From assembly GCA_963776985.1 (NCBI GenBank), contig CAVZOV010000002.1, positions 1,058,338 through 1,122,337 of the forward strand: a DNA stretch of 64,000 bases, given 5' to 3'. Of the stretch, positions 6,702 through 37,024 are shown piece by piece. The number at the start of each line of letters is the position of its first letter. Position 1 is the stretch's first letter. Made by a program: the position numbers and the translations under genes. The DNA comes from an uncultured Solirubrobacterales bacterium (GTDB taxonomy: Bacteria > Actinomycetota > Thermoleophilia > Solirubrobacterales > Solirubrobacteraceae). The notes under the pieces are model-generated. The model saw nothing but the letters and a program-made list of their open reading frames with translations. It searched no databases and was not told the DNA's origin.

Positions 6702-6732
6702 AATATCTCAATATTACGGGTACGCGGCGTCT

Positions 6733-7282: not shown

Positions 7283-7366
7283 GCGGGCGTGGTGGAATTG
7301 GTAGACACGCTGGCCTTAGGAGCCAGTGGGCTTTTGCCCATGGGGGTTCGAGTCCCTCCGCCCGCA
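7283..7366 (+). tRNA. tRNA-Leu (anticodon TAG)
   Basis: Acceptor GCGGGCG/CGCCCGC, anticodon stem CTGGC/GCCAG with loop CTTAGGA, long variable arm TGGGCTTTTGCCCAT, T-loop TTCGAGT. Confidence 0.9.
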
Positions 7367-7377
7367 CTATTTGGCTC

Positions 7378-16444: not shown

Positions 16445-16612
16445 CCCCGCCCAAGGGTATCCTAGAAAGTGCTCCGATCCGCCGATACCGGGGGTCCTGC
16501 GGTTGTTGGTCCTTGCGTGGTCGAGTGCGCTCTCGCGCATGGCCGTGTAGAGTCTGTCGGGCGTTCACGAGCGCCTGAGGCACTCGGAATGGCCTGCAAA
16601 CCAGGCAGTTCT

Positions 16613-16683
16613 GGGGGACTGGTGTAACGGTAACATGGGGGTCTCCAAAACCCTTGCTCGAGGTTCGATTCCTCGGTCCCCCG
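16613..16683 (+). tRNA. tRNA-Trp (anticodon CCA)
   Basis: Acceptor GGGGGAC/GTCCCCC, anticodon stem GGGGT/ACCCT with loop CTCCAAA, T-arm CGAGG-TTCGATT-CCTCG. 71 nt with short D and variable loops. Confidence 0.85.
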
Positions 16684-16845
16684 TTGGTGTGCGAACTGCT
16701 TCGCTTCGAGCGGGGGTGGTGTTGGTTGGTTCGGAGACGGCCTGGCAGGGTGGTCTATCGCATCGACGACGCAATCCCGATGTGTCGGTACTTGACGTTG
16801 CGCATCGGGCGGATATCCACCGACCGCGGTGAGCGATGGCCCAGG

Positions 16846-21401: not shown

Positions 21402-21480
21402 GTGCAGCTCATCGGCGCAGCGAGTGGCCTGGTTGAGCCGGCCAAACCATCGTGAACGGCGATTTGCGACGCTTAGCAGC

Positions 21481-21990
21481 ATGTATCACGTCGAGCTGCG
21501 CCAGTTTCCCCACAATTTCTGCCATTTCAACCTCACCGAAGGAGAGCTGCGCGAGGCGGTCCTCGACTCGTGGGCGCGAGGAGAGTGGCTCGAGTTCGGC
21601 GAACGCAAGTGGAACCCCAACCAAGCTCAGCTGACCGTGTTCGAGGGTCCTCGCCTAGCACTCGATCAGCTCTCGATGGGACGTGGTTGGCGTGCTGCGG
21701 TACGCGAAGGTCAGGATGTCACCGAGCGGATGCTCGCGGCCACCCGTGCCGATGCCGACGTGTCAGGTGGGACGCATACGGGTACTGCTGCGAGCGGTCA
21801 GGTGCCTGCTCGCGAAGCGCCCGTGCCCGGGCCAGATCCCGCGGTCGTGACTCTGGTCGGGGAGCTGGTCGGACTGCTGGGCGAGGATCCCATGTCGCTC
21901 CTGCGAGCTTGGCAACTCGCGCTGGAACGTCATCCGGATCGCACCCCGAGCGAATCCCTCGCGCTCGCCGAAGACCTCTTGCGCGGTTGA
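21481..21990 (+). CDS. hypothetical protein
   Basis: ATG at 21481 (MYHVELRQFPHNFCHFNLTEGELREAV...). Divergent from the synthase gene. No family recognised. Confidence 0.5.
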   Translation: MYHVELRQFPHNFCHFNLTEGELREAVLDSWARGEWLEFGERKWNPNQAQLTVFEGPRLALDQLSMGRGWRAAVREGQDVTERMLAATRADADVSGGTHTGTAASGQVPAREAPVPGPDPAVVTLVGELVGLLGEDPMSLLRAWQLALERHPDRTPSESLALAEDLLRG

Positions 21991-22021
21991 TCTGACGCTA
22001 AACTCACGCCTAGCTTCGCTT

Positions 22022-22095
22022 GGTGGGCGTAGCTCAGTTGGTAGAGCTCCGGGTTGTGGTCTCGGCGGTCGCGGGTTCGAATCCCGTCGCTCACC
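22022..22095 (+). tRNA. tRNA-His (anticodon GTG) with encoded G-1
   Basis: G-1 plus acceptor GTGGGCG/CGCTCAC, discriminator C. Anticodon stem CCGGG/CTCGG with loop TTGTGGT, T-arm GCGGG-TTCGAAT-CCCGT. Confidence 0.9.
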
Positions 22096-22096
22096 C
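22051..22096. repeat. attL-like copy of a 46-bp direct repeat (3' part of tRNA-His)
   Basis: gggttgtggtctcggcggtcgcgggttcgaatcccgtcgctcaccc is identical at 34418-34463. Confidence 0.85.
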
Positions 22097-22127
22097 TCAC
22101 GAAAAGCCTGCAAAATCGTGGTTTCAT

Positions 22128-23663
22128 GTAGGCGTTCAGTCCTTTGGGCTTTACATAACAAGGTTTGGTTGGCTGGGCGGCGAACGTGGTTGGTGTGGAG
22201 CGGTCTGAGGCTGAGGCGGTTTATGACTCGGGGCGTGAGGCGTGTGTGGAGTTCTTGATGCGGTTGGAGCAACGGTTGCGCGCGGTCGAGCAGAAGGTGG
22301 CTCCCACTTCGCGTAATAGCTCCTCGCCACCGTCGGCTGATGCTCCGAAGACTCGTCAGCAGCGTCGGGCGGAGGCGCGGGAGAAAGCTAAGGATTTGGC
22401 TCGCGAGGACGCCAAGCAGCGTAAGGCGGGCGGTCAGCCCGGTCATCCGGGCGTGGGGCGAGAGCTGCTGTCTGAGGACCAGATGAGTGAGATCGTTGAT
22501 CATTACCCCGAGGAGTGCTCCGGGTGCGGGCGGGAGTTCACCGATGCTGAGAAGGTCCCGCGTCATGGGCCCGGCCGCCATCAGGTTGCCGAGCTGCCAC
22601 CAACGACGGTTGTGTATGTCGAGCATCGCACCCATCGGTTGCGGTGCTCGGGATGCGCTAAGCGGACTCGCGCAGTTCTCGGGACGATTGGCGAGTCGGC
22701 GTTCGGGCCGTGGTTGCAGGCGGCGGTGGTGGCGTTGACGGCGCGTAACCGGATCTCGCGGCGGGACATGAGCGAGCTTGCCTGGGAGCTGTTCGGGGTG
22801 CGGGTCTCGGTCGGCGCGATCGATCAGATCTGTCAGCGCACCTCAGGGCTGCTCGCCGGCCCGCACGAGCGTCTCACGAGCCAGGTGCTGGGCTCTGGCG
22901 CGGTAAACGTCGATGAGACCGGCTGGTTCCTTGCCGGAGATAACCGCACGATGTGGACTGCTACGACTGCGCAGGCGGCGATCTTCCGGATCGTTGAGGA
23001 TCGCCACCGCGACCGGCTCGAAGCGCTGCTCGGCAACGATTTTCACGGGATCGTGACCTCGGACCGGTGGTGGGCGTACGACCTCCTGAACCCCGAGCAG
23101 CGACAAGCCTGTTGGAGTCACCTGCAACGGGACTTCCGGTTCCACAGCGAAGGGTTGGCCGCCCAGCAGCAGTTCGGAGAAGCCGGCCTCGCGCTCACCC
23201 GCCGACTGTTTGAGGTCTGGCACGCGTTCGCCGAGCACCGAGATCGCCGTTGGCTGACACGCGAGATGAAACCGGTCATGGCCGATCTCCGCAAGCTGCT
23301 CGAGCATGCCGCCAACGGCAGCAAACGCCACCGCCTGCACCGCCGATTCGCGAACAACCTTCTGAAGATTTGGCCCGCGCTCTGGACGTTCGTGACGATC
23401 GACGGCGTCACCCCGACGAACAACGCTGCCGAGCGCGCGCTCCGCGGACCGGTGATCCACCGCAAGCTCTCCCACGGCAACCAATCCGATGACGGCGAGC
23501 GATTCACCGAACGGTCCCTCTCCGCCTCAGTGACCTGCCGCCTCCAACACCGCTCCCTGCTCGCCTACCTCCGCGAACTACTCACCACCCACCAACACGG
23601 CGGTGCCCTCCCCGCCCTCCTCTGACCCGCAGCCCCCGGGAACCCAAAGGACTGAACGGCTAC
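22128..23663 (+). mobile_element. IS66-family insertion sequence (single-ORF, ISBst12-like type)
   Basis: 21-bp terminal IRs: GTAGGCGTTCAGTCCTTTGGG at 22128-22148, against the reverse complement of 23643-23663, GTAGCCGTTCAGTCCTTTGGG (20/21). 8-bp target duplication GGTTTCAT at 22120-22127 and 23664-23671. Confidence 0.85.
22165..23625 (+). CDS. IS66-family transposase
   Basis: zf-IS66-like CSGCG...CSGC, VNVDETGW (DETP-type) and CWSHLQRDF (CWAHxRR-type) blocks. 486 aa. Confidence 0.8.
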   Translation: MVGWAANVVGVERSEAEAVYDSGREACVEFLMRLEQRLRAVEQKVAPTSRNSSSPPSADAPKTRQQRRAEAREKAKDLAREDAKQRKAGGQPGHPGVGRELLSEDQMSEIVDHYPEECSGCGREFTDAEKVPRHGPGRHQVAELPPTTVVYVEHRTHRLRCSGCAKRTRAVLGTIGESAFGPWLQAAVVALTARNRISRRDMSELAWELFGVRVSVGAIDQICQRTSGLLAGPHERLTSQVLGSGAVNVDETGWFLAGDNRTMWTATTAQAAIFRIVEDRHRDRLEALLGNDFHGIVTSDRWWAYDLLNPEQRQACWSHLQRDFRFHSEGLAAQQQFGEAGLALTRRLFEVWHAFAEHRDRRWLTREMKPVMADLRKLLEHAANGSKRHRLHRRFANNLLKIWPALWTFVTIDGVTPTNNAAERALRGPVIHRKLSHGNQSDDGERFTERSLSASVTCRLQHRSLLAYLRELLTTHQHGGALPALL

Positions 23664-23901
23664 GGTTTCATGCGGAGAGGTGCCTGGGAGGCATTTGTTC
23701 CGTGCGGAACAAATTTCGGTACGTTTTGCGCTCGCTTGGCGAGATGCGCCATGCAATTGGGCTGCGAGTGGGATAGCGATTCGCGCTCATACGGGGTAGG
23801 GGCGGCGTTTTCGCTCGCTCTTTGGGGAGTCATCAGGTCGAAGTCAGTCAAGGAATCCAGTAACCGCCGGGACGCTTTTGACGCAGACGGGGGAGGGTTT
23901 A

Positions 23902-24993
23902 CTAGTGTCCCGCGCCGTTAATTCGTTGTAGAAGTCGTGAGATGGAGTCTAGGGTTTGCTCTGCGGTCTTGGTCCAGATGAATGGCTTGGGGCTTTCGTT
24001 CCATTTGTTGACCCAGTCGCGGATATCTTTCTCCAACGCGTGGACGCTGCGGTGATCTGAGCGACGTAGCAGATCGTCTGTGAGGTAGGCGAACCATCGC
24101 TCGACCTGGTTGATCCAGCTGGAGTACGTCGGGGTGTAGTGCATGTGAAACCGGGGGTGTGCGGTCAGCCAGCGTTGGATGGCGGGGCTCTTGTGGGTGG
24201 CGTAGTTATCGCAGACGAGGTGCACGTCGAGATGCTCGGGGACCTGACTGTCGATCTTGACCAGGAACTTCTTGAACTCGATCGCGCGGTGGCGGCGGTG
24301 CGTTGAGCTGATGACGGTCCCGTCGGCGGTGTTAAACGCAGCAAACAGGCTGGTCGTGCCGTGGCGCAGATAGTCGTGGGTGCGCTTCTCCGGCATGCCC
24401 GGCATCATTGGAAACGCCGGCTGGGAGCGCGCGAGCGCTTGCACCTGGCTCTTCTCATCCACGCTCAAGACGACTGCGGCTTCGGGCGGATTCAGATACA
24501 GGCCGCAGATGTCATAGACCTTCTCCACAAACAGCGGGTCGTTGGAGAGCTTGAATGTATCCGCGCGATGGGGCTTCAGATCAAACGCTCGCCAGATCCG
24601 CCCGATCGTCGACTTTGACAATCCCGAGCGCTCGGCCATCTTCGCGCGCGACCAATGCGTCGCGTTCTCCGGCGTGGACTCCAACGTCGCTACGACCACG
24701 TCCTCGACCTGCTCAGCGGTGATGCTCGCCGGACGTCCCGGACGCGGATCATCGGACAATCCGTCCAACCGCAGCTCACAAAACCGTCGGCGCCACTTCC
24801 CGACCGTCGGCGTCGACACACCACACGCCACCGCAACATCCTTATTGGAATACCCCTCCGCGCACCGCAAAACGATCCGCGAGCGCAACGCCAACGCCTG
24901 CGAAGACTTCCTACGCCGCTCCCACCGCACCAACTGATCGCGCTCCGCATCGGTCAACTCCAACACCTGCTTGGGCCGTCCAGTTCTCACCAT
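23902..24993 (-). CDS. IS630-family transposase
   Basis: HTH N-terminus plus a DDE_3-type core (LSVDEKSQVQAL, LVCDNYATHKS, YSSWINQVERWF). ATG 24993 preferred. The TAG stop spans the element tip and the flanking TA. Confidence 0.9.
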   Translation of the reverse strand: MVRTGRPKQVLELTDAERDQLVRWERRRKSSQALALRSRIVLRCAEGYSNKDVAVACGVSTPTVGKWRRRFCELRLDGLSDDPRPGRPASITAEQVEDVVVATLESTPENATHWSRAKMAERSGLSKSTIGRIWRAFDLKPHRADTFKLSNDPLFVEKVYDICGLYLNPPEAAVVLSVDEKSQVQALARSQPAFPMMPGMPEKRTHDYLRHGTTSLFAAFNTADGTVISSTHRRHRAIEFKKFLVKIDSQVPEHLDVHLVCDNYATHKSPAIQRWLTAHPRFHMHYTPTYSSWINQVERWFAYLTDDLLRRSDHRSVHALEKDIRDWVNKWNESPKPFIWTKTAEQTLDSISRLLQRINGAGH

Positions 24994-25041
24994 GCCACAG
25001 CTTATCACACTTAAGTACCGAACTTAAGGCGCAGGACACTA
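23903..25041 (-). mobile_element. IS630-family insertion sequence flanked by TA
   Basis: IRs: GTGTCCCGCGCCGTTAATTCG from 23905, against the reverse complement of the right end, GTGTCCTGCGCCTTAAGTTCG (17/21). TA on both flanks (23903-23904 and 25040-25041). Confidence 0.85.
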
Positions 25042-25425
25042 GGTCACCGTGCCAGGAGAGTTCGACCCATTGTGATCCTCGGATCGTGCTTCAGGTGCGT
25101 ACTCTTCTGCCGATCAGGCGATGAATGATCAGCGATATTGGCTCGATCACGGTCGCTCACCGGAAATTGTTGGTTCAGGTAGTCGCTAACACCCGAAGGC
25201 ATTAGCGCGAGGTGGGGCTGATCCAACGCCTCTTTTCGTCCGAAGGGGGCACGAGATCGGCGGCAACGATGGCTACCGCTCGCCCAAAGCAAAGCAGGTG
25301 CCGCAGCCCTCCTTTCCGCGCACAGCAGGTGGCTTGGCGCACACGCGAAGATGCTCGTCGCACGGTGGACGCAGGCTGTTGCTTTGCGACTTCGATGTCC
25401 GAGCCCGGCGAGACGATCACCCGTT

Positions 25426-26787
25426 ATGAACGTGATCCTGAATCAGAAGACGATCAATCAGTGGATCTACGAGGTGGAACCGCACCAGTTGGTGTTCCCG
25501 CCGACCTGCGATGTCTGCGGGAAATCGGAGGTCACAAAGGTCGTGTCGCGTGAGATTGATCGTGGGCGGATGTACATCGTGCGGCACTCTAACCCGGGCT
25601 TCGATCCCTCAGCGGCACTCGCGTTCTGTGAGGAATGCTGGCCCCGCTGGCTGATGTGGAGGGCTCGGATGGGTTTTGACCTGCACTGGGAGCACTCGTC
25701 TGGCGCGGCGTGCCACGCCGGATGCCTAGCTCGGCAGGGCGGACGGCGTACCCAGTTGCTGGCTCAGATGTCGATGCTCACGTCTCGCACTGACGGGTTC
25801 TTCGCACAGAAGAGTATCGACGGGATGCCCACGATCAACGGGTCGCCCTTGCTCATGGCTATGCGGATGAGCCACTTCTTGTACCGGATGCTCCAACGCC
25901 AGGCGTACTACGAGTCGATCGGGGACCCGACCGAGGTACAGTCCCAGTTGCTGCGCGCGTTCCAGCTCAGCGAGATCATTGGTGTCCCGAGGGCGCAGAC
26001 TGACGGGATTTTGATCATCGTCGAGGCGTTCGAGTCGTGGTACAAGGCGCCAGATGGGGACGTCGGTATGCCGAAGCCGGGCGACAAGTCGATCGGGCTG
26101 CACTGCGTTCACCTCACCCACTACTCAGACTCGGGGGCGATTCTCGGCTTCTGGAACTCTTGGGGTTCCGGATGGGGAAAGCGCGGCCACGGCACGATCT
26201 CGTTCGAGTACCTCGAGATGTACTTCTATGAGGCCTTCGTAACCAGGCGCGCACGGTTCGGTCCCGCAGCCTGGAACTTCGCCTCTCTTCCGGATGACAT
26301 GACACGCCAGGACCTTCGCGGTCGTCTAATGCTCCAGACTTGGCGCCAGCGAATTCGCAAGAGGGGCCTGCACGAGGAGAACTGGGTGGTCGAGGTCTAT
26401 GAGACGCCCTCGCCGACTACCGGTCGTCGGGTGCTATGCGCCGAAGTGCAGAACGGGTTTGGCCTGCGCCTCGGATGGGCCTTTCTGAGGGACCATCACG
26501 ACCCAGATGGTCACATTCTCGAGATCACCGAGCTATTCGTCTGGCCGACATTTCGGAGAATGGGTATAGGCCGGTTCCTTGAGGATGTCGCAGTCGACTA
26601 CGCGACCGCTTGGGGTTGCGGTGAACTCCATCTGATGATGAACGAGGCCGACGCTGTCGTCGGGCCGCCACGCGCGGCGGCGAGACTCTTCGCTCAGGCG
26701 CTCGGCTACCAGTGGCGATGGCGCAACGAGGTGGCGCCGCGCCGCATGGCCACCGCGATCAAGTCGGTCAGTCGCGCGTCGACGTGA
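25426..26787 (+). CDS. hypothetical multidomain protein: N-terminal CxxC...CxxC Zn-ribbon-like segment, papain-like (C1-type) peptidase-like core, C-terminal GNAT acetyltransferase-like domain
   Basis: CDVCG...CEEC. HCVHLTHY...FWNSWGSGWGKRGHG resembles the His...Asn-Ser-Trp-Gly-x-x-Trp-Gly block of papain-family peptidases. ITELFVWPTFRRMGIGRFL resembles GNAT motif A (R/Q-x-x-G-x-G/A). ATG 25426 chosen. Confidence 0.55.
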   Translation: MNVILNQKTINQWIYEVEPHQLVFPPTCDVCGKSEVTKVVSREIDRGRMYIVRHSNPGFDPSAALAFCEECWPRWLMWRARMGFDLHWEHSSGAACHAGCLARQGGRRTQLLAQMSMLTSRTDGFFAQKSIDGMPTINGSPLLMAMRMSHFLYRMLQRQAYYESIGDPTEVQSQLLRAFQLSEIIGVPRAQTDGILIIVEAFESWYKAPDGDVGMPKPGDKSIGLHCVHLTHYSDSGAILGFWNSWGSGWGKRGHGTISFEYLEMYFYEAFVTRRARFGPAAWNFASLPDDMTRQDLRGRLMLQTWRQRIRKRGLHEENWVVEVYETPSPTTGRRVLCAEVQNGFGLRLGWAFLRDHHDPDGHILEITELFVWPTFRRMGIGRFLEDVAVDYATAWGCGELHLMMNEADAVVGPPRAAARLFAQALGYQWRWRNEVAPRRMATAIKSVSRAST

Positions 26788-26980
26788 AATTCCCCTTCGG
26801 CCACACGAGCCTGCCCCGCTCTTTGCAAACGCTCGAAGCTCCGTGCTGGCGAAGGTGCAAGACGAGCAATCCCTCCGCTCGGGCACCTACTAGTCTCGCG
26901 CCAATGGCAAGTCGAGAACCGGCACCCGAGGAGCTGGCAGCGGTCGACCTTGTCGCCGCGCGCTCGGCGGGTGTTGGGAG

Positions 26981-27716
26981 TTGCGTGACGGCGAGGGCGA
27001 CCCTCCGGGGATGCACGACTTCGACGTGATCCTCCCGGATGGACGCTGCGTCGCGCTGGAGGTCACGAGTGCGATCGACGGGGTAGTCGTCGCGCTCTCG
27101 GATGCAGCTTTTGGAAGAGAAGGGCGACAGCAGCGCTGGCCCGCTCCCGACCTGGCGAACGATTGGATCGTGACGATCCCGCAGCGCCCGGTCCGTGTCG
27201 CCGAGATGATGAGCGCGATGCTCCCCATCCTGGAGATCTTCGAGGAGCACGAACACGCCGATGTCGACCCGCACATCAACTATGCCTACGTCAGTCCACG
27301 CTCGGAGATGCCTACGGCGGTCGTTGAGGCCGCCCGACGGATGGTCGAGCTTGGGGGTGACTCGGGCGCGGGTGCTCGCGCCGCGGGCCGAGGGCGACGC
27401 GGAGATGTTCGTCACGATCAGTGGCGGTTTCGCGGGCGACCCCGGCGCCGTTAACCGACTGGTCGCCGAACGGGCGGAGCCCAAGCGCGAGAAGCTCGCT
27501 AGGGCTAAGGCCGACAGTGCGAGCGAGTGCCATTTGTTCGTCTGGCTGGACGGGACGCAACCGGGCGCAGAGTTGGCTGTGTCAACGATGTCGCCGCCGC
27601 CGGCGCCTGAGATCCCGTCGGAGGTCGACGTCGTTTGGCTGGCGACGCCGCCGCTGGCCACGCCCGAGAAGCTCTGGCGCGCGCGGCCGTCGGCAGGCTG
27701 GGAAGTGCTGCGCTAG
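26981..27716 (+). pseudogene. frameshifted hypothetical gene (possible PD-(D/E)xK-like fold)
   Basis: Track ORFs 26981-27454 and 27261-27716 are in different frames and read as one protein. Third-position GC switches frame at the G5 run 27353-27357. N-terminal HDFDVILPDGRCVALEVTS resembles a D...E-x-(K/T) nuclease core. Confidence 0.45.
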
Positions 27717-28675
27717 CTGTTGTGCCCGGTGACGTCCCGAACGCGGGCGCGGGGTGGCCGGTTGCCGAGCGCTGAGTGGGTGCGGCGCTCGTTGTAGTGG
27801 TTGATCCAGTGTGGCAGGGCCTCTTGGCGCGCGTCGGATGAGGCGTATTGGAGTGCGTAAGCCCACTCCCGAATGAGTGTTTGGTGGAAGCGCTCGACCT
27901 TGCCGTTGGTCCTGGGCGTGTAAGGCCGCGTGCGGATATGGAGGATCGCTCGTTGCCAGAGCAACTGCTTGAAGCTCCTGCTCTTGGTGTAGGTGAACGC
28001 GTTGTCGGTCATGATCCGCTCGCAGACGATCCCCTGTTCCAAAAACCAGTCAAGCGCGCGACGCGTGAACGCGGTGACCGTGGCAGCGGTCTCGTCCTTG
28101 TGGATCTCCGAGTAGGCCATCCTTGAGCAGTCATCGACGATCGAATGCACGTACTCCCAGCCGACCCTCCTTGAGCGTTTGGTGCGATCGCCGGTCACGG
28201 CGTGCCCGGGCTCGGTGAACTTCCCGAGCTTCTTGACGTCCATGTGCAACAGGTTGCCGGGACACGGCCACTCGTAGCGGACCACCGCGGGAGCATCGGG
28301 CCGTGGATGGCGTGAGCAGCCGCTACGGCGCAGCACCTGATGGATCGTCGAATGGGGTCTTGCGATGTCCGTCTCGTCTGCGAGCCGCCGCGGGCTCCAG
28401 CCGGTGCGTTGGCGCCGCTCACAGATCCGTGCGGCCTCCCCAGCCGGCACCTGGTTCGGGCTTCGGTGCGGCCGCGAGCTGCGGTCTTCCAAGCAGGCGA
28501 GCGTGACGCGATCGGTCTCCTCCGCTTCGCGCCAGCGGCGCACCCACTCCCAGCACGTCGACTTCGCCACATTGCAAGCATCCGCCGCCGCCTGCAACGT
28601 GAACCCGTCCTCCTCGACCAGCAGCACCAAGCGGAGCCTGCCGATCTGAGTGAGTGGAGCGTTAGCGTGTTGCAT
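27713..28675 (-). CDS. IS481-family transposase (rve integrase core)
   Basis: 320 aa with an HTH N-terminus and DDE blocks HMDVKKLG, DDCSRMAY and TDNAFTY...NGKVERFHQTL. The stop TAG lies in the CTAG target. Confidence 0.9.
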   Translation of the reverse strand: MQHANAPLTQIGRLRLVLLVEEDGFTLQAAADACNVAKSTCWEWVRRWREAEETDRVTLACLEDRSSRPHRSPNQVPAGEAARICERRQRTGWSPRRLADETDIARPHSTIHQVLRRSGCSRHPRPDAPAVVRYEWPCPGNLLHMDVKKLGKFTEPGHAVTGDRTKRSRRVGWEYVHSIVDDCSRMAYSEIHKDETAATVTAFTRRALDWFLEQGIVCERIMTDNAFTYTKSRSFKQLLWQRAILHIRTRPYTPRTNGKVERFHQTLIREWAYALQYASSDARQEALPHWINHYNERRTHSALGNRPPRARVRDVTGHNS

Positions 28676-28771
28676 TCCGGGCCTCCCTGAGGTCAGTGAG
28701 CTTTGACACCCACAGCCTCTCGGCAGGCCCGGACCTACCTCACACCGTTCGCAACGTCCCTGGGCACATCA
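27718..28771 (-). mobile_element. IS481-family insertion sequence
   Basis: IRs: TGTTGTGCCCGGTGACGTCCCGAACG against the reverse complement of the right end, TGATGTGCCCAGGGACGTTGCGAACG. 6-bp duplication GCTAGC (27712-27717 and 28772-28777), matching the known NCTAGN target of IS481. Confidence 0.85.
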
Positions 28772-29175
28772 GCTAGCGCGCCTGTCACGCCGTTGGCGGG
28801 CACAGGCTCGCGGATCGGTGCTATGTCTTCGTCTGTCGAGAGGCAGTACCGAGCTCTGGCCGCCGTTCGACTCGTGGGCGCCAGCTGTGTCCTCCCGGCC
28901 CTGAAAGCAGGACAATTCTCAAACGAGATGTTCCCTGCTTCTCGCCAATCGCAGGGGGCTGCGGCATCATTAGGAGGTGCCCAAGGGCAAACCTCGGAAG
29001 CAACAGCGTCGTCAGCGGCCGCGCCCTCGGCGGCCGACGGAGCGGGTCACGCCGATAATGATCCACGAGGGCGCCCACAGTCCGCTCGGAAGGAGTTAGA
29101 GGCCCTGAGAACGGCCCACGATGCCAGCCTTTTGCTTCACGACGTGCTCATGGGCCTCAGTGGGCCGGCGGCGGA

Positions 29176-29586
29176 TTGGGCAACACCACGCGGACGACAG
29201 AAAATCGCTGTCGGGTTCCTGTCGGCAATCTCGCTTCGATCTTCGCGGGCCCCATGGGGATCATCGGCTGGGGCTACGTGCCGGAGGCGATGGGACTCAA
29301 GCGCCGGATTGGTGAGGCGCTTTGGCGTACAGAAAAGGTCATCAACGACCAAAGCGGCGAGTACGCTCGTCTTTGGGTCGATGGGAAGCCTCCGAGCGGC
29401 GGCATTCGCGTTCCTGAGTTGTGGAGCGTCTACTCCGCCGGCACACACGCCGACATTCGGATGATGGGCCTTGAAGTGGCGGAAGTCGCTGGCATGAAGC
29501 GAATGACTGTCCCGATCCTGCCCACTCGCCAGGCCGACATCGCGAATGGCATGCTGACGGAAATCGCGGTTGAGGTTCTTGACTAA
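29176..29586 (+). pseudogene. fragment of a decayed hypothetical gene
   Basis: Good third-position GC from about 29235. The upstream coding signal continues in another frame (track ORF 28703-29464 up to about 29240). The same frame stays coding-like for 57 more codons after the TAA at 29584-29586. Confidence 0.3.
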
Positions 29587-29795
29587 GCCGCGATCGCTGT
29601 CGAGTGGGTGCGAGAGCGCGAGTTCACAGACGATGAGCAACGGCGCGGAGACGAAATCGTGGAGGCGATTGAGAGGCTGCGCACCAAGTATTTCGACGGA
29701 ATCTCCGAGCCAATTGAGGCGTCGGAGGGAGAGGCTTCGACCGTCCGATCCGCGCCGTAGCTTGGTCGAATGCCAAGGGATCTACTCGGAACGGA

Positions 29796-31513
29796 CGGTG
29801 GGTGTCGCGCAAAGTTGTGCGAGTGATGGGTGAATGTCAGCGGTGCCCGTAGAGATCTGGTTCGGTGGGCCTGGTCGAGTCTCTGTGCAATTCAGGTGAG
29901 CGTTTTAGGCCGTTTGGGCGACCAGGTGGTGTTTGTGGAGCTTCATCAGGTTGTGAGTCGCGGTGATCAGCCGCCATTCCGAGCGTGCTGCGGATCTGCC
30001 TCGCCTGTGGAACTGGTTGATGCGCCGGTTGTGCTTGGTTTGAGCGAACACCGGCTCGACCATCGCCTTGCGTTTTCGATAGAGCCCGCCGCCGACCTGG
30101 CCGGCGAGCATGGTGCGCATGAAGGCGTAGCGCCCGCAGTCCCAGCCGCGGCGGGGTGTGTTGCGCTTGCCGGCATCGGGCGGGATCAGCACCTGGGTGC
30201 CGCTGCTGACGACGTTGTCGATTTGATCTTCATGCCAGTAGCCACTGTCAGCGACCGCGACCCCAGGCGCCTCGCTCACACCGACCTGCTGTAGCTCGCG
30301 CCTGGTGGCCTTGATCATCGGCTCGAGCTGCCCGAAGTCTGGTGAGGTGAGCGTTATCTCGGCCGCCAAGACGATCTGATGCTCATTCACGGCGGCCTGC
30401 ACGTTGTAACCCTGGGTGTAGCTGCGCGGCGTCTTCACGTTCCGCGAATCAAGATCGGTTGTGTTGATCTTCCCCGCTGGCGTCTCGGGCGGCTCGTATG
30501 GCTTTGGCGGGCAACTGAGCCGTCGGCCTTGCGTGTCCCGACCGTGTGCTCGGTAGTGCTCATATGCCTCGTTCGCTTCGCGCTCGACCCGCAGGTTCTC
30601 CTGCAGGCGACGCTCGCACTCGAGTAGGCGCTCTGGCCGCGACCTTGGGATCGGATGTGCCGCGCGACGGCCGTGCTCATCGAGCTGGTGGCGCGCCTCA
30701 CGCAACCACCCTTCATGCCCATCAGCCCGAGCGACGATCACCTCGGGGTCAAGCACCAGCTTCACACCCTGCGACTCCGCATCAACCATCTCGGTGTTCA
30801 TGTCTTGCCCGCCTGCACGCTCACGCGCGAGATTCTGTTTGGCCTCACGCAGCGCAGCACGTCGCCCCTCACGCGTCCACAAATGCTCAGGCAGCTCATC
30901 GCCACACGCCTCGCCGTAGAGCTCATCCTCGGCCGCGTCGAGGGCGCCCGCCTCTTTCAGAATCTCCCGCGCGAGCTGCTCATAGTCAACGTTTGAGTGG
31001 TGCGACGCGTTCGCGTGCACCTTCGTCCCGTCGATCGCAATCACCCCGACCTTCACCAACCCCGATTCCCGACAGAGCCCCAGCACCTCGCTGAACAAGC
31101 CCGCCAGCGCTGCCTCGTGGCGGACACGAAACCGCGCGATCGTCGCGTGATCGGGCGTCTGCTGCGCCGCGATCACCCGCTAGGCGACATCCTCAACACA
31201 CTTGCGCTCGATCCCGCGCGAGGACCGCTCACCCCTTGCATAGGAATACAGCAAGAGCGAGACCATCATCCCTGGCTCGAACGCCGCGCGGCCCCACCCA
31301 TCCCGGCGGTAGGAGCCATAGAACGCCGCGAGATCCATCTCCTCGACCGACGCCAACACAAACCACGCCAAATGACCCTCCGGCAGCCAATCACGAGGGT
31401 CCGGCGGCATCAAAAACACCTGCTCACGATCACACTCAAGAAAGTTCTGGGGCATACCCCAAAAGTGTCATAACCACGCCGGACAGACCCAGGACTTTGT
31501 GCGACACTCACCG
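29796..31513 (-). mobile_element. IS1182-family-like insertion sequence
   Basis: 20-bp IRs: CGGTGGGTGTCGCGCAAAGT (29796-29815) against the reverse complement of 31494-31513, CGGTGAGTGTCGCACAAAGT (18/20). No clear target duplication. Confidence 0.7.
29905..31455 (-). pseudogene. IS1182-family transposase interrupted by an in-frame TAG
   Basis: Track ORFs 31180-31455 and 29905-31176 are in the same frame, separated only by TAG (31182-31180) plus one codon (...CVEDVA*RVIAAQQTPDH...). N-terminal DUF772-like block LPEGHLAWFV...YSYARGERSSRGIE and DDE block IAIDGTKVHANAS. Confidence 0.8.
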
Positions 31514-32567
31514 CGCAAACGGAAAGCAACGCTGGGAGTCCTGTCGCACACTCGACGAGGCCCGCAGAGCGAAGGCAGCCAGGATGGCCGATATCGGCCG
31601 TGGCGAGTTTGACGAGCGCTCTCGAATCACGCTGCACGAATACGTCCTCGAATGGATCGAGCGCTACCAGGGACGTGGCAGGCGCAGCTTCCGTGACTTA
31701 ACCCGCGAGGAGTACCGGCGGATGCTCACACAGTACGCGCTGAGGTTCTTCTCCGACCGGATGCTGTTGACCGAGGTCACACCGAGTCGGGTCGCGGCGT
31801 TTGTCGCTTGGTTGTGCGACGAGCGAGAGCAGGGGGGTGCAGCCTTGGCGGATAAGACCGTCAAAAATATCGTCGGACCTTTGCGGACCTGCCTTGCGAC
31901 AGCGACCAGGGAGGGCCTGATCCGCTCTAACCTTGCTCGTGATGTCGACTTGCCGCATCGACCGACAGCAGAGGACTCGGAGGAGGATGAGGTCAAAGCG
32001 ATGACGCGGGAGGAGCTGTCTAGGTTGCTGGCGTCGGTGCCGGAGCGGTGGCGCCTGTTCTTCTGGCTGCTGGCGGTCACGGGCCTACGCATCAGCGAGG
32101 CTGTGGGGCTCCAGTGGCGACACATCGAGCTTGATGGAGGCCAGCCGGATGTGGGGGTCCGGCGCGGTGTCGTACGAGGCAAGCTCGGTCCTCCAAAGTC
32201 TCGATACGCGCGCCGCGACGTTCCAATCAGCAACGCTCTCGCCGATGCCCTACGCGAGTATCGTCGCGGGACTGAATGGCCGGGCGATGAGGATCTCGTG
32301 TGGCCCGCGAGCAACGGTCAGTTCCTCCATGTCGGCAACCTGCGTCGCCGCGTGCTGCTGCCCGCACGAGAAAAGGCGGACCTGGACTGGATTGGCTTCC
32401 ATGCCTTCCGGCACACGTGCGCCACGCTCCTGTTCGCCGAGGGTCGCAACGCAGTCCAGGTGCAGCGGTGGCTCGGCCACCACTCTCCTGCCTTCACGCT
32501 CGCGACATACGTCCATCTACTCGACGGCGACGTCGGAGCGCCGCTCGAAGGTATTCAGGCGGCGTGA
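31514..32567 (+). pseudogene. tyrosine-type (phage) integrase, 5' end severed by the IS1182-like element
   Basis: Catalytic signature: TGLRISEA (Arg), HAFRHTCAT (HxxR), LATYVHL (Tyr). The track ORF N-terminus (31236-31513) lies inside the IS. Joining 29770-29795 to 31514 restores ATG-MPRDLLGTDANGKQRWES... in frame. Confidence 0.8.
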
Positions 32568-32761
32568 GCGAGCTGCCTGACGAGACTCTCGTACTCGTCG
32601 GCCAGCGGAGTGGCGCCTAGCGAGAGCAACATGGCGGAATGGCCGAGGGCGGCAAGTGCCTTGGGCGTGTTGAGCGGCAGCATCTCTTCGCCGGTGGCGA
32701 TGTAGAGCCCTGTCGGTCCATCGTAATCACTGAACTCGTCGTTCATTGTGTTCTTGCTCAT
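32555..32761 (-). CDS. hypothetical 68-aa acidic protein coupled to the Fic gene
   Basis: Its ATG overlaps the Fic stop (ATGA at 32758-32761). No family recognised. Confidence 0.5.
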   Translation of the reverse strand: MSKNTMNDEFSDYDGPTGLYIATGEEMLPLNTPKALAALGHSAMLLSLGATPLADEYESLVRQLAHAA

Positions 32762-33525
32762 GCTCTTATCGTACCGGCGTCCTGCGATGAGACACGGATG
32801 GTTCGCTCGAAAAGGTCTGCGAGGGCGTCATAGCCATGGTGTCGGCCTCCAGGCCGTAGCCCTTGACCGAGCGCCCATTGTTGCTCATCGTGGTCGGGTA
32901 GCGCGACGCCCGTCGCGCCGAGCCGGATAAGGGCGTACTGAAGTGCCACGTAGGCGGTGCGTCCGTTGCCGTCGAAGAATGGGTGCGTGGAGAGGAGCTT
33001 GGCGTAGAACGCGGCAGCCGGCAGGGTTGCCTCGTGAAGCTTTCGCCTACGGCCTTGGCGGTGTGCGTCTTCTCGCTCCCCGACGGCTTGCTGCAGCCCG
33101 GTGAACGCTCGTCTCAAGCGCGCTGGGATGTTGCGGCCCTTGCAACTCACCACGGTCAAAGACTCTGGGGCTTGCCGGCTGCCCCAGACGACGCCGTACT
33201 GGCCCTGCTCGTCACCCCGGCGGAATCGCCCGGCCTGGTCGGGAAACCACTTCTCAAAGATCAGCCGATGCCACCGACTGATGTCCCGTGGTGTGGCGTC
33301 GTATCCGCGGGTCGCTTCGACGGCCGCGTCAGCGGCGATGATCGCGACCTGCTCGGTAATGGCACGCCAGGTCTGCTCCGGGCTCATCCCTGCAGCGCAG
33401 TACAGCTCGGAGGTGGGGTCATCGTGGAAGACCGCGAATGTGGCGCGCGCGGCCGCCACGGCAACCTGGGCGAACTCGTCCTCTGCTGCTGTTCGCTTCG
33501 CTATCTGTCCATGCCCTCGCCCCAT
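32758..33525 (-). CDS. Fic/DOC family protein
   Basis: Fic motif HPFFDGNGRTAY (HxFx(D/E)GNGRxxR with the last Arg replaced by Tyr). ATG 33525 chosen. Confidence 0.8.
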   Translation of the reverse strand: MGRGHGQIAKRTAAEDEFAQVAVAAARATFAVFHDDPTSELYCAAGMSPEQTWRAITEQVAIIAADAAVEATRGYDATPRDISRWHRLIFEKWFPDQAGRFRRGDEQGQYGVVWGSRQAPESLTVVSCKGRNIPARLRRAFTGLQQAVGEREDAHRQGRRRKLHEATLPAAAFYAKLLSTHPFFDGNGRTAYVALQYALIRLGATGVALPDHDEQQWALGQGLRPGGRHHGYDALADLFERTIRVSSQDAGTIRA

Positions 33526-33568
33526 CGCTCGAAGATACCCCGAGCACAAGACCTCATCCTGGGTGCCC

Positions 33569-34231
33569 TCAACCGAGCTTGTATGCCTCGGCGCGCTTGT
33601 AGAGCAGGGAGAGGAGGCGCTGATCGGTTGTGAGAGACGGTGTCCTTGACCCTGAGATGGTCAACGTCACTACGCCGCGCCCGGCGGCAAAGGCGAAGAA
33701 GTCCTGGTGTGTCTGCGCGGGCGTGCCGACGCCGTCCGTCGCGCGGAGTCCCATGCTCGGAGGCGCTACCGGAAGCGTGCTGAATGCCACCTTGAGTTCT
33801 GGCTGTGGCGGAAGGAGGCAGTGACGGTCGTGCGGATTGCCGAGAGCCGAGACATATGCCGCGGCGAAAGTCTCGCTCGACATCGCCGCGACGGTCGAGC
33901 GCGCCCACCAATACGCGCTGCCAAAGATGGGCGATTGAACCTTCATCAGCAGCTCGCCCGCTGGGAGGTGGGAGCAGCGCGGGAAAGGACCATGCTTGCG
34001 CTGGTACTTGACGACTTCAACGTATCTTTTGCTCGTCGTCCCCGGCAGATCAACAGCGCGCAGATTGACGGCGTGCGCGTAGGCGAGGGCTTGGGCGCTG
34101 GTGATCGGCGTGTCCGGGTCAAGGGCAGCGCCACTTGAGGACGCGGAGCTGCTTCCACATCCGGAGAGGATTGCTGTGCTCACGACGAGGGCAAGCATTG
34201 TGCTGGTGGGCCGACGCATCACTGGGATCAT
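33569..34231 (-). CDS. hypothetical lipoprotein (paralogue of 16846-17721)
   Basis: Signal peptide plus lipobox ILSGC|GSS. Start at ATG 34231 or 34219. Shares blocks with 16846-17721. Confidence 0.6.
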   Translation of the reverse strand: MIPVMRRPTSTMLALVVSTAILSGCGSSSASSSGAALDPDTPITSAQALAYAHAVNLRAVDLPGTTSKRYVEVVKYQRKHGPFPRCSHLPAGELLMKVQSPIFGSAYWWARSTVAAMSSETFAAAYVSALGNPHDRHCLLPPQPELKVAFSTLPVAPPSMGLRATDGVGTPAQTHQDFFAFAAGRGVVTLTISGSRTPSLTTDQRLLSLLYKRAEAYKLG

Positions 34232-34417
34232 CCCAAGCCGTTGGCTTGTCAGGCGTCCACGCTTGGCATCGATGCGGCGCTCACATGTGCGCAGGGTCAA
34301 ACAAAGTGCAAACATGCCCCACGCCATCCGACACCACGACGGTTTGCGCGAAAAGGCAGATCCCGCATAACAAAGCCAAAACGCCGACTCTACGACACCC
34401 TACGCCACGCCATGATG

Positions 34418-34463
34418 GGGTTGTGGTCTCGGCGGTCGCGGGTTCGAATCCCGTCGCTCACCC
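34418..34463. repeat. attR-like orphan copy of the tRNA-His 3' segment (46 bp, identical to 22051-22096)
   Basis: Exact 46/46 identity. No tRNA 5' half precedes it. Confidence 0.85.
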
Positions 34464-34613
34464 CTCTGATGTGTCTCGGGATATCGGAGACTGGCGCCTC
34501 GAGATTTAGGTTGCGGTCAGGCTTAGCTGATCTCCTAGCCGCCTCCTCTGAGCACCCTGTCAGAACCTCCACGCGACGCCGCGGTGGCGCGCTAGATACG
34601 TCGATCGTCGATA

Positions 34614-34895
34614 ATGGTCCCAGCGGTGAAGCTCTACGTTTGTTACGGCACATTTGGCCCTGGCACACGGCATCCGTGCGCTCGGGCTCACAGGGCGCTT
34701 GTCGCGGCCGGTTACACTCCGGAAGTCATAAGAACGTACGGCTGCTATGGAACCGATCGCCTATTCCGTGGACGCTGCGCGGTCAAGCGCTTGACCGGCA
34801 ACTACAAGGTCCCCACGCTCGTGCTCGATGACGACACGGTCGTCGACGAATCCGACAAGATTGTCGCGTGGGCTGAGGCTCATCAACGAACCTAA
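34614..34895 (+). CDS. glutaredoxin/GST-N-like thioredoxin-fold protein
   Basis: 93 aa. KLYVCYG...HPC...KVPTLVLDDDTVVDESDKIVAW resembles glutaredoxin-family/GST N-terminal domains. Confidence 0.55.
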   Translation: MVPAVKLYVCYGTFGPGTRHPCARAHRALVAAGYTPEVIRTYGCYGTDRLFRGRCAVKRLTGNYKVPTLVLDDDTVVDESDKIVAWAEAHQRT

Positions 34896-34995
34896 CACTC
34901 GGACTGCGGGCGAGTGATGCGACGGGGTTGTCGTCTCGATCCGGGCGCTAATCCACGCGGCGGCTCCGCCCTGGCCAGCGCGGCGACCGTGGACC

Positions 34996-35592
34996 TCAAC
35001 CCTCGCGACGGTCGAGCGCGCGCGTCGTCATCCTGGCCAGCGCGATGCCGATCAGAGCGCCGCCGATCGCATCGCCGGGATAGTGCACGCCGGTGTGCAC
35101 GCGCGAGTATGCGACGAGCGCCGCGAGGATGTGTAGCGGGATCGCGGCGGTTGACATCGTCGTGCCCACGCCGCTTGCGAACGCGAACGCCGCGGCGGAG
35201 TGGCCCGATGGAAACGACGTCGACACAGGCATTCGCACGTGGCGCTCGGGCGGTACTCGCTCGGCCGTGCGATTCGGACGCCCCCGGCGACTGAGTGGCT
35301 TGATCGCCAGGTTGACGATGGTCGCCGTGACCGCGACGGACGCGAGGCCGCGGGCCGCCGCTCGACGCCCAGTCGGACCGCACGCGAGGGCGAGCACCGT
35401 CCCCGAGGCAAGCGAAAGTCGCGAATAGTTGGCCGCGTGCGAGAGTCGGCGCATCGATCTGTCCAGGGCGGGCGTCGGAGTGCTGGCGACCCTTGCGTAG
35501 AGCGCGGCGTCGAGCCGCTCCGCTTCGATCATCCACCGGCGATACCCAGGGATGGGCTTATAGGCGACGGGGTCGATGTCGGTGCGGATCAT
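34996..35592 (-). CDS. PAP2-family phosphatase (membrane)
   Basis: PAP2 motifs KPLSRRGRP, SFPSGHS and SRVHTGVHYPGD. Confidence 0.8.
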   Translation of the reverse strand: MIRTDIDPVAYKPIPGYRRWMIEAERLDAALYARVASTPTPALDRSMRRLSHAANYSRLSLASGTVLALACGPTGRRAAARGLASVAVTATIVNLAIKPLSRRGRPNRTAERVPPERHVRMPVSTSFPSGHSAAAFAFASGVGTTMSTAAIPLHILAALVAYSRVHTGVHYPGDAIGGALIGIALARMTTRALDRREG

Positions 35593-35992
35593 GTGCGGTC
35601 ATCCTATGAGGAGCAAGTCAGCAAGGGCCGTTGACGGCGTGCGCTCGGCGATTGTCAGAGACATTCTCCGCGAGCTGAGCCGCATGATTGCTGGCTTTAC
35701 GCGCTTCAAGCGTCTGCTCGGTTGCGCGATGGCGGCCGAATCGTCAAATTCGCCGCTCAACGGGTCCGAGCGGGCGGGACTGGCGGTGCGACCGGCGTTT
35801 TGCGAACTTCGACGGCATTCAGGCACGGAGTAGGAGACACGGCTCGACTTGAGCGCTCGAACCCATGAACCTCTGTGTGCGATGCGCGACCGAGACTGCG
35901 GGTTCGGCGACATCGCATTAGCAACCGGGTGCCGTGCCCGTGGGCCACGGAGTTCGGATCAACGTTGAATAGCACCGACCAGGCAGGGAAAC

Positions 35993-36988
35993 ATGGCTTC
36001 AACTAGCAGGACGCGTCCGATGAGGACGCGCTCAAGAGCGCAAACGCAGCCGGCAGAGCCGGACGCGTTGCCGCGCGGCCACGTAACTGAGATCCAGCGT
36101 GCCCGGATGCTTAGCGCGGCGGTCGAGGCGATCGAGGAAAACGGCTATGCACGACTCACGGTCGCGCAGGTGATCAACCGCGCAAAAGTCTCGCGCAAGA
36201 CGTTCTATGACTTGTTCGTCGATCGCGAGGACTGTTTTTTGGCCGTGTTCGAACGGACGCTTGAGCAGGTCAGGGCGAGGGTCATCGAAGCGTACGCACA
36301 GGAATCGTCGTGGCGTGAGGGTGTTCGGGCAGGCTTGGCGGCGCTGTTGATATTCATCGACGAGGAGCCTGAGCTTGCGCGGTTGTGCGTCGTGGATGCG
36401 CTCGGTGGAGGTCCGCGTGTACTGGAGATGCGTGCGCGCGTGCTTGCCGAATTGCGCTCGGTGATCGACGAAGGTCGCGGCGCCGCCACGACCAGACGCG
36501 AGCCTCCGAGCGTGACTGCCGAAGGCGTAATCGGTGCGGCATTTGCGGTGATCCACACACGTATGCTCGAACGCAGTTCCAAGCCCTACATCGGATTGCA
36601 CGGCCCACTCATGAGCATGATCGTGCTTCCCTACCTCGGGACGCGCGCGGCGAGTCGCGAACTGGCTCGCCCTGCACCACAGGTGCGCCGCCGCGCAAAG
36701 TCAGAGCGGGGTGTTGGCAAGGACCCGATGGCCGGGCTAGACATGCGCTTGACCTACCGGACCGTGCGTGTATTGAGTGCGATCAAGGAGCATCCACAGG
36801 CAAGCAACCGTGAAGTGGCAGACGGGGCTGGGATCGCCGACCAGGGCCAAATATCCAAGCTGCTGTCTCGCCTTGAGCGTCTCGACTTGATCGAAAACGT
36901 CGATCAGGCGCAGTCAAAGGGCGCGCCAAACGAATGGCGCTTGACGGCTCGCGGCGAGCGTGTCGAGAGGGCCACCAGACCGATGTAG
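35993..36988 (+). CDS. transcriptional regulator: TetR-type N-terminal HTH plus ligand-domain-sized middle, with a C-terminal MarR/ArsR-like winged helix
   Basis: TetR HTH: YARLTVAQVINRAKVSRKTFYDLFVDREDCF. C-terminal wHTH-like: LTYRTVRVLSAIKEHPQASNREVADGAGIADQGQISKLLSRLERLDLI. Confidence 0.65.
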   Translation: MASTSRTRPMRTRSRAQTQPAEPDALPRGHVTEIQRARMLSAAVEAIEENGYARLTVAQVINRAKVSRKTFYDLFVDREDCFLAVFERTLEQVRARVIEAYAQESSWREGVRAGLAALLIFIDEEPELARLCVVDALGGGPRVLEMRARVLAELRSVIDEGRGAATTRREPPSVTAEGVIGAAFAVIHTRMLERSSKPYIGLHGPLMSMIVLPYLGTRAASRELARPAPQVRRRAKSERGVGKDPMAGLDMRLTYRTVRVLSAIKEHPQASNREVADGAGIADQGQISKLLSRLERLDLIENVDQAQSKGAPNEWRLTARGERVERATRPM

Positions 36989-37024
36989 GAGCCATCTCGG
37001 GGTCGATACCCAACCGGCCTGTCC

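Follow-up and report, generated by a model that had tools for sequence, protein, structure and literature searches.

A 12.4-kb interval in the genome of an uncultured Solirubrobacterales bacterium, bounded by two perfect 46-nucleotide (nt) copies of the 3' end of a tRNA-His gene, is horizontally acquired DNA inserted at a tRNA-His hot spot, and it is probably the fused ends of two tandem integrative elements from which the internal attachment-site (att) copy has been deleted. The window analyzed here comprises 64,000 nt of assembly GCA_963776985.1 (contig CAVZOV010000002.1, positions 1,058,338 to 1,122,337 of the forward strand), with the island at 22051-34463. We refer to the element represented at the right end of the island, and to its family, as E1, and to those at the left end as E2. 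Integration at tRNA-His, formation of a two-element tandem, an internal deletion, later arrival of insertion sequences (ISs) and loss of excision together provide, in our estimate, the best explanation of the structure (probability about 0.72). The original prediction, made from the letters alone, had described one integrative island in tRNA-His; the integration is upheld, and the single element gives way to what are probably two fused ones with unlike ends.

The tRNA-His repeat and its target site

We found tRNA-His(GTG) to be the sole tRNA at the left end of the island, with none near 34418 (ARAGORN), and the only RNA gene detected in 20000-37000 (Rfam RF00005, 62.3 bits). A repeat search returned a two-copy exact direct repeat of 46 nt with a spacing of 12367, whose first base is the third one in the 5' strand of the anticodon stem (GGG/TTGTGGT/CTCGG) and whose end coincides with that of the tRNA. 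Identity breaks off exactly at both edges, where CC faces TG (left) and T faces C (right), and the chance expectation for two identical 46-mers within 64 kb is (64000^2/2)/4^46 = ~4e-19. No resemblance to a tRNA 5' half is seen in the 28 nt that precede the second copy (..CTACGCCACGCCATGATG). The perfect repeat of the tRNA-His 3' end and the missing 5' half had both been predicted and were confirmed by the repeat search, ARAGORN, Rfam and direct reading; an outcome named in advance as a refutation, a right-hand repeat lying within another intact tRNA-His gene, was not observed.

For comparison, we drew on 99 fetched loci altogether (designated L001 etc.), with 59 from a genome-collection scan using the neighboring GT2-PilZ glycosyltransferase and 40 from a metagenome scan using the integrase gene (int). 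All 59 loci of the glycosyltransferase scan are Solirubrobacteraceae or Solirubrobacterales metagenome-assembled genomes (MAGs) from soil, the nearest being L001 (~98-99%), L039 (93%) and L002 (86%). The closest genome, L001, is a 7-kb contig that ends just before the tRNA, so the state of the island there is out of view. Exact-protein look-ups of int, the left-flank protein and the TetR regulator gave no match, and that of PAP2 gave a 901-bp contig only.

The tRNA-His sequence is 100% identical across ~40 related loci, and the backbone gene order is tRNA-His, PAP2 or another small gene, TetR, c2 and cl1. An empty tRNA-His site, which the prediction had proposed to seek in related genomes, is present in 12 of the 43 loci that include tRNA-His and downstream DNA, with TetR 0.3-1.4 kb from the tRNA (for example in L041, L021, L014, L016, L020, L033 and L055). 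In 9 of the 43, 2-7.9 kb intervenes between the two genes, compared to 13.9 kb in the window. A second core copy with 0-6 mismatches occurs in seven loci (L005, L017, L030, L036, L039, L053 and L056). Between the same two cores, L039, which is the nearest genome to include both flanks (88-89% nt identity), carries another island, 4.07 kb long, whose integrase also differs (30% amino acid (aa) identity).

The first ~20 nt to the right of the second core (CTCTGATGTGTCTCGGGA..) loosely resemble the flank of the empty site in L021, in an alignment made by eye, gapped and with no blastn match. Because of the empty sites, the occupied relatives and this loose likeness, we regard the interval as an insertion at a hot spot, and position 34463/34464 as a genuine element-chromosome junction. 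The attL/attR signature of integration into a tRNA gene, as originally proposed, is supported by the empty sites, the repeats and the island-bound relatives of the integrase. The arrangement is that of the islands defined in Islander: the intact tRNA-His and a 3' fragment in the same orientation lie on one replicon (both on the plus strand), a PF00589 integrase that is not of the Xer or integron type lies between them, and related genomes have an uninterrupted target with adjoining flanks. In uncultured Solirubrobacteraceae, tRNA-His is thus a hot spot for integration, where two or more integrase families compete for a single 46-nt target.

Affinities of the two ends

The right end of the island belongs to E1. 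The catalytic residues of its integrase (R, K, HxxR, H and Y) are still present, and its scores against Xer and integron models are far under the cut-offs. From 31510 to 34463, the window shares 92.4% nt identity with L030 (Solirubrobacterales MAG MFD06092.bin.2.7, CAVRXP010000001.1), compared to only ~77% for the chromosomal flanks, and the homology breaks off precisely where the core ends. L030 carries the same block as the right part of a 5.98-kb island flanked by two perfect cores. The two islands share int, a small open reading frame (ORF), the Fic gene, the lipoprotein gene, the P arm and the same 46-nt core in identical order, whereas L030 is free of IS elements and keeps the int N-terminus, an upstream gene for a 302-aa protein (o302), a DUF6338 protein, GST_N and TetR genes and the E1 P' arm. 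A further difference is an apparent frameshift near the C-terminus of the otherwise intact L030 int, which lies in two frames (L030 5327-6386) before the HxxR/Y region, reflecting either a real frameshift or a long-read homopolymer error.

The L030 integrase begins MMAAKLEKTRTPGIFKRGSRYVFSY/RANGKQRWES, and homology in the window starts at RANGK, right at the right inverted repeat of an IS1182-like element. The ~25-residue N-terminus is kept in L030 and at least 20 other relatives. The window thus has neither a full-length int nor the upstream 302-aa gene; the int 5' end, o302 and an L030-type left part are found nowhere in the 64 kb. The 302-aa protein of L030 (6452-7360, minus strand in the locus) has no Pfam match, and its gene overlaps the start of int by 4 nt. 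Homologues lie upstream of int in L060, L062, L063, L072, L074, L083 and L089, in elements that target different tRNAs, and the protein may be an accessory factor of the E1 integrase clade.

Relatives of the integrase (50-66% aa identity) occur in islands with 47-nt tRNA-Met (L070), 47-nt tRNA-Gly (L092) and 42-nt tRNA-Arg (L061) repeats, each of which begins at the anticodon stem. Complete tRNA-repeat-bounded islands with an E1-type integrase measure 6-8.4 kb, and in this family int reads toward the P arm from a distance of 0.15-2.7 kb with cargo between them, which in the window consists of the Fic and lipoprotein genes. More decayed right ends of the E1 type are found in L017, with a Fic pseudogene in four frames and a core with six mismatches, and in L059, where a decayed Fic copy likewise adjoins a degenerate core. 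L070, a metagenome contig with a 54%-identical integrase, has three 47-nt copies of the tRNA-Met 3' end (856-902, 9286-9332 and 13406-13452, the third 81% identical) and thus holds two islands in tandem behind tRNA-Met.

Within ~120 nt to the left of the displaced fragment, seven int relatives share invariant GTGCAAACA(AA)GTGCAAACATGCCCCACGCCATCC and ACGACACC repeats. An alignment of eight elements with tRNA-His, -Met and -Arg targets (A1) has 48 invariant columns, concentrated in these P-arm motifs, and its least similar row, L060, did not show the repeats. The window carries the P-arm motifs, with a G lost from one GTGCAAACA copy. Their position and conservation suggest that the GTGCAAACA and ACGACACC repeats are presumably arm-type sites of the integrase. 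The P' arm motif of E1, GTGTGAACAGAAGTGCAAACA, lies ~85 nt to the right of the regenerated tRNA in L030, L011 and L074, and is absent from the attL side of the window.

The left end belongs to E2. Leaving out the ISs, 22097-25098 matches the DNA that immediately follows tRNA-His in L024 at 96-97% identity, and the left end is 72-79% identical to post-core DNA in L003, L005, L010, L036, L052, L053 and L056. The short element-side sequence after the core, which we call 'c', is continuous with 23664 onward in the IS-free L024, and similar sequence follows the cores of the L039, L005 and L030 islands. Of the islands with this type of left end, those preserved far enough to show their integrase (L003, L010 and L052) use a different one, encoded on the minus strand beside attR and 26-32% identical (aa) to that of the window. 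The left-end module, which contains an 83-codon ORF, follows the second core in L053 and L056, and in L036 it sits within an att-bounded island that is missing from the otherwise syntenic L006. Because the L036 island carries the module and syntenic L006 does not, we consider the module to be element DNA and not native. Together, the E2 affinity of the left end and the E1 affinity of the right end suggest that the two repeats bounding the 12.4 kb derive from two unlike elements.

Insertion sequences, deletion and the order of events

Four ISs account for 5439 of the 12321 bp (44%) of the island, and none has a second copy in the window. They represent four families, as had been predicted (IS66, IS630, IS481 and IS1182/IS4-like). 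The IS66-family element encodes a transposase with DDE_Tnp_IS66 (Pfam, 1e-31), zf-IS66 and DUF6444 domains, and has inverted repeats (IRs) beginning with GTA, a pair found by repeat search, and an 8-bp target-site duplication (TSD). The IS630-family element, which inserted at TA and duplicated it, has a DDE_3 transposase (7e-21) with helix-turn-helix (HTH) domains and shares ~79% nt identity with IS630 transposases annotated on plasmids of Streptomyces (plasmid megablast). L024 has the IS630 site uninterrupted (..GGGTTTACTAGGTCACC..); since it is uninterrupted at the IS66 site as well, the boundaries of both elements are known to the base. The IS481-family element encodes a transposase with Pfam rve, rve_3 and LZ_Tnp_IS481 (leucine zipper) matches, its IRs begin with TGT and its target has the form NCTAGN; the stop codon of the transposase falls in the target CTAG, and an 88% identical copy is present in L005.

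The fourth element, at the truncated end of int, can be placed safely in the IS4/IS5/IS1182 superfamily. Its transposase (Pfam DDE_Tnp_1 and DDE_Tnp_1_6) has a 516-codon reading frame with an in-frame TAG at 31182-31180, where an 80% identical copy in L005 has Tyr; the domains and the frame length would fit IS1182, whose transposases measure ~500 aa. The flanks of the element are mutually unrelated, and this feature together with the missing TSD is the signature of an IS-adjacent deletion. Erosion of genomic islands through deletions adjacent to IS ends is a known process. The island shares with such cases an IS exactly at the breakpoint, the lack of a target duplication, unrelated flanks and further ISs in a non-essential island, and nothing about it is unusual in this respect; it differs in that the deletion would be deduced rather than observed.

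The following order of events would account for these features. A tyrosine integrase recombined the attP of an element with the tRNA-His segment from anticodon stem to 3' end, such that the copy brought by the element rebuilt the tRNA at attL and the original 3' fragment was pushed to the right as attR. E1 would have entered tRNA-His in this way, and E2 would then have entered the regenerated tRNA, giving the arrangement tRNA-core-E2-core-E1-core. E1 would survive as the right end at 31512-34463 (int, the small ORF, Fic, the lipoprotein, the GTGCAAACA P arm and the core), and E2 as the left end, with the core, 'c', the 83-codon module and probably the GNAT gene and other cargo. A deletion at the IS1182-like element would have taken the right part of E2 with its integrase, the middle core and the left part of E1, at the cost to E1 of its P' arm, cargo, the accessory gene and the first 25 codons of int. 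The IS66, IS630 and IS481 elements, each of which has an intact target duplication, were inserted by simple transposition and would have come later. Because int no longer has its promoter, its start codon or the first strands of the domain that binds arm sites, and because the attL arm is foreign, excision of the island appears very unlikely. The earlier view of an immobilized and eroding element is accordingly supported by an int lacking 25 codons, the 44% IS content, the stop codon in the transposase and a frameshifted cargo gene, from which the loss of mobility is deduced.

It is common for islands to be arrayed in tandem at a single tRNA gene. Tandem arrays or their remnants occur among the relatives, namely in L053 and L056, where an E2-type module follows the second core, and in L070 with its three tRNA-Met cores. 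L030 and L005 have short 'c'-like sequence after the second core, and in L030 chromosomal-type genes come next.

Several points weigh against the two-element reading. The cargo at 25240-29797 has no relatives in any fetched locus, and its assignment to E2 is by position only. Sequence 'c' and the 83-codon module are very common beside tRNA-His, and part of this DNA could be old resident DNA. A three-core intermediate with both elements intact was not found, and the tandem-then-deletion history is a reconstruction; likewise, we infer the loss of excision from gene structure. Every comparator genome is a MAG, and the frameshift at 27353-27357 in a cargo gene may be a homopolymer error of long-read assembly. 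Finally, the chimera could have been made elsewhere, as considered below.

The strongest competitor to two fused elements is a single 12.4-kb element with a mosaic left end that integrated once with the present int and then received the four ISs. Such an element would fit the presence of just two core copies, both perfect, and of one integrase gene only, and homology among element families is generally patchy. We nevertheless consider it unlikely, given that the attL side, in place of the GTGCAAACA-type P' arm of L030, L011 and L074, has the left-end module of islands that use another integrase; that the int 5' end, o302 and the left part of E1 are missing at a junction where the IS has no TSD; and that complete tRNA-repeat islands with this integrase family are just 6-8.4 kb in size.

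Far less probable is a chimera that was made elsewhere by homologous or IS-mediated recombination and then integrated as one hybrid, even though both end types circulate in one bacterial family at the same tRNA. Lambda-type integrases are arm-dependent, and an attP with mismatched arms, such as the mixed P/P' site of a hybrid, is a poor substrate for them. In addition, the truncated int cannot be the integrating enzyme, and the truncation must postdate integration. An origin of the second 46-mer as a local tRNA-His duplication or pseudo-tRNA among native genes, without any integration, would accord with the known formation of tRNA fragments by duplication and with the GC content of the interval (0.60-0.67, near that of the flanks), but we count it as refuted by the 12 relatives in which tRNA-His adjoins backbone genes and by the conserved att arm, which precedes a fragment beginning at the anticodon stem and is common to islands in other tRNAs, and it is further opposed by the L021-like ~20 nt after the second copy and by an int-Fic-lipoprotein block 92% identical in a genome with 77% flanks.

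Cargo, known systems and neighboring DNA

Table 1. Features of the tRNA-His island and its right flank in window coordinates.
Feature	Position	Strand	Evidence or remark
Intact tRNA-His (GTG)	22023-22096	+	ARAGORN, Rfam; 3' segment island-borne
attL core, 46 nt, anticodon stem to 3' end	22051-22096	+	Exact repeat
Element-side sequence 'c', 31 nt (TCACGAAAAGCCTGCAAAATCGTG GTTTCAT)	22097-22127	+	Last 8 nt are the IS66 TSD
IS66-family element, single ORF, 1536 bp	22128-23663	+	Transposase 22165-23625; 21-nt IRs; 8-bp TSD GGTTTCAT
E2 left-end module with 83-codon ORF (23670-23921)	23664-23904	+	95.7% nt identical to post-tRNA-His DNA of L024
IS630-family element, 1135 bp	23905-25039	-	Transposase ORF 23902-25008; TA target duplication
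478-aa protein, C-terminal GNAT and central weak papain-like (C1) motif	25351-26787	+	Pfam Acetyltransf_1 7e-07
Hypothetical gene split between two frames	26981-27716 (26981-27454 + 27261-27716)	+	Frame switch in GC content at third codon positions (GC3)
IS481-family element, 1054 bp	27718-28771	-	Transposase 27713-28675; 6-bp TSD GCTAGC; IRs
~1 kb of DNA with one plausible ORF, 29176-29586 (136 aa)	28772-29797	+	GC3 pattern
IS1182/IS4-like element, 1714 bp	29798-31511	-	Transposase 31455 to 29905; 18-nt IRs; without TSD
Tyrosine integrase of E1, without first 25 codons and promoter	31512-32567	+	Pfam Phage_integrase 8e-20, Phage_int_SAM_5
68-codon ORF overlapping the Fic gene end	32555-32761	-	Kept together with Fic in L030
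Fic/DOC-domain protein, motif HPFFDGNGRTAY	32758-33549	-	Pfam Fic 3e-10
Predicted lipoprotein, likely start MRRPTSTMLALVVSTAILSGC	33569-34219	-	Signal peptide, LSGC lipobox; 89% aa identical in L030
E1 P arm	34296-34417	+	GT-CAAACAAAGTGCAAACATGCCCCACGCCATCC and ACGACACCCTACGCCACGCC; alignment A1, blastn
attR core, displaced tRNA-His 3' fragment	34418-34463	+	Exact repeat; L030 homology ends exactly at 34463
Right flank with 93-aa GST_N/glutaredoxin-like ORF (34614-34895)	34464-34995	+	Pfam GST_N_2 3e-07

The tyrosine integrase, Fic gene and lipoprotein predicted between the repeats are borne out by Pfam and the lipobox (Table 1). Of the predicted peptidase-GNAT fusion, the GNAT domain is confirmed, and the peptidase half has as its sole evidence a weak papain-type HxVxL..NSWGxGWGxxG motif (E ~0.1), recovered against the light chain of cathepsin C in PDB (E=0.1 over HCVHLTHY..NSWGSGWGKRGHG) and as Peptidase_C1_2 (E=0.11). 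No relatives of this 478-aa protein were found among the 99 fetched loci. The count of damaged genes, given as at least two, stands at three: the transposase with the nonsense codon, the 5'-truncated int and the frameshifted hypothetical gene. In the last of these, the frame shifts at a G5 run at ~27353-27357, and the merged product of 244 aa can be aligned without a break, over residues 9-242, to hypothetical proteins encoded by plasmids of Streptomyces and Arthrobacter. A 297-aa minus-strand ORF at 26768-27661 was rejected as an antisense artefact of this plus-strand gene on the basis of GC3, the ORF list and the alignment of the merged product. For 28772-29797, there were no family matches and no relatives in the fetched loci.

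The Fic protein is 96.6% identical (aa) in L030 and has weak matches to PADLOC PDC-S04/SoFic and NCBIfam DOC_P1. Inspection by eye revealed no antitoxin motif, (S/T)xxxE(G/N), in the adjoining 68-codon ORF, and we therefore do not call the pair a toxin-antitoxin system. Searches of Pfam, NCBIfam and PADLOC returned nothing for the 83-codon, 68-codon and 136-aa ORFs, the lipoprotein, the merged frameshifted protein or the 302-aa protein of L030. The same three resources, applied to ORFs of at least 60 aa with a coding signal, yielded no transfer genes (FtsK/SpoIIIE-like Tra, or relaxase and type IV secretion system) and no replication initiator genes, and without transfer and replication functions the island does not qualify as an integrative and conjugative element (ICE) or its actinomycete counterpart (AICE). 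Virion, packaging and lysis genes had no Pfam matches, and an IMG/VR scan with int found no relative; the island does not class as a prophage or phage satellite. Its only plasmid matches are the IS630 element and the merged hypothetical protein.

Islander lists 3919 islands, of which 2083 are of the anticodon-centered class A and 125 are tandems, the rule for a tandem being one fragment and one integrase per member (PMC4383910). The island conforms to class A of Islander/TIGER in its regenerated tRNA and displaced 3' fragment in direct orientation, the extent of the repeat from anticodon stem-loop to 3' end, the PF00589 integrase inside, its kilobase size range and the occurrence of tandems at one tRNA gene (tDNA). 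We conclude that it is a textbook tDNA genomic island of the anticodon-centered class in an under-studied actinobacterial family. It differs from the Islander tandems in that the internal fragment and one integrase are gone and int is truncated, such that the array can be deduced from the unlike ends only.

Small integrative elements and temperate phages of actinomycetes that use tRNA 3' halves include pSAM2 (tRNA-Pro), SLP1 (tRNA-Tyr) and mycobacteriophage L5 (tRNA-Gly). Like the island, they have Actinomycetota hosts, a tyrosine integrase of the lambda type whose N-terminal domain binds arm sites, identity segments of ~40-110 nt from anticodon loop to 3' end, and an int near attP that reads toward it. 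In contrast to them, neither the window nor L030 has detectable replication, FtsK-like transfer, relaxase or virion genes, there are no IMG/VR relatives, and the cargo consists of Fic, lipoprotein, GNAT and toxin-antitoxin-like genes. What is added here is the evidence for a two-element chimera, exact IS boundaries, the truncated int and the conserved arm motifs of an integrase family. The locus may serve as a worked example of how tandem islands collapse to one pseudo-island once IS elements delete the internal junction, a structure that repeat-plus-integrase island finders would call a single island. The conserved arm motifs and cores could aid integrase-based genetic tools in a poorly tractable group. 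Beyond annotation, the importance of the island is small, and its Fic and GNAT cargo is without demonstrated phenotype.

A bolder reading, which we think rather unlikely, is that E1 constitutes a family of minimal integrative elements, 6-8 kb in size, that has so far gone undescribed in soil Actinomycetota, with the 302-aa partner as a new accessory recombination or mobilization factor. Such a family would be defined by the integrase clade, the linked domainless 302-aa protein and the GTGCAAACA arm sites; it would have no replication, transfer or virion genes, would be retargeted among tRNA-His, -Met, -Arg and -Gly, and would ferry Fic or toxin-like cargo. The window would hold just a wreck of one member.

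Beyond attR, 34464-34995 is 88% shared with L039 and absent at the empty sites of L041 and L021, and its GST_N-like ORF shares 84% nt identity with one of the genes in the L030 island. This ~0.5 kb may be an older integration remnant or lineage-specific native DNA. A third, degenerate core between the GST_N ORF and PAP2 was sought and rejected, as the best candidate (GGGTTGTCGTCTCG, ~34925) scored 23 compared to a mean of 17.5 and a maximum of 26 for shuffled sequence and is not significant.

Other islands at tRNA-His have their own gene content. The att-bounded islands of L036 (3.5 kb) and L056 (8.3 kb) have no recognizable tyrosine integrase; they encode a UvrD-like helicase (in fragments in L036), an HTH protein of the XRE type and an unknown protein of 250-290 aa adjoining attR. 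For the other tRNA-His integrase family (L003, L010, L027 and L052; also L039 and L053), partners were read by eye from the sequences as either a PIN-like toxin with an HTH/excisionase-like protein, or a RelE/Gp49-like with a replication-relaxation-like protein.

In the flanks of the window, the synteny anchor lies 0.5 kb to the left of the tRNA at 19272-21482 and encodes a 736-aa, cellulose-synthase-like GT2 glycosyltransferase with a C-terminal PilZ domain, which is probably under cyclic di-GMP control. The 331-aa backbone regulator at 35993-36988 combines two DNA-binding domains, an N-terminal TetR_N HTH and a C-terminal MarR-type winged helix, and is 83-97% conserved across the family. Further tRNA genes are located at 6618-6702 (Leu-CAA), 7283-7367 (Leu-TAG) and 16612-16684 (Trp-CCA).

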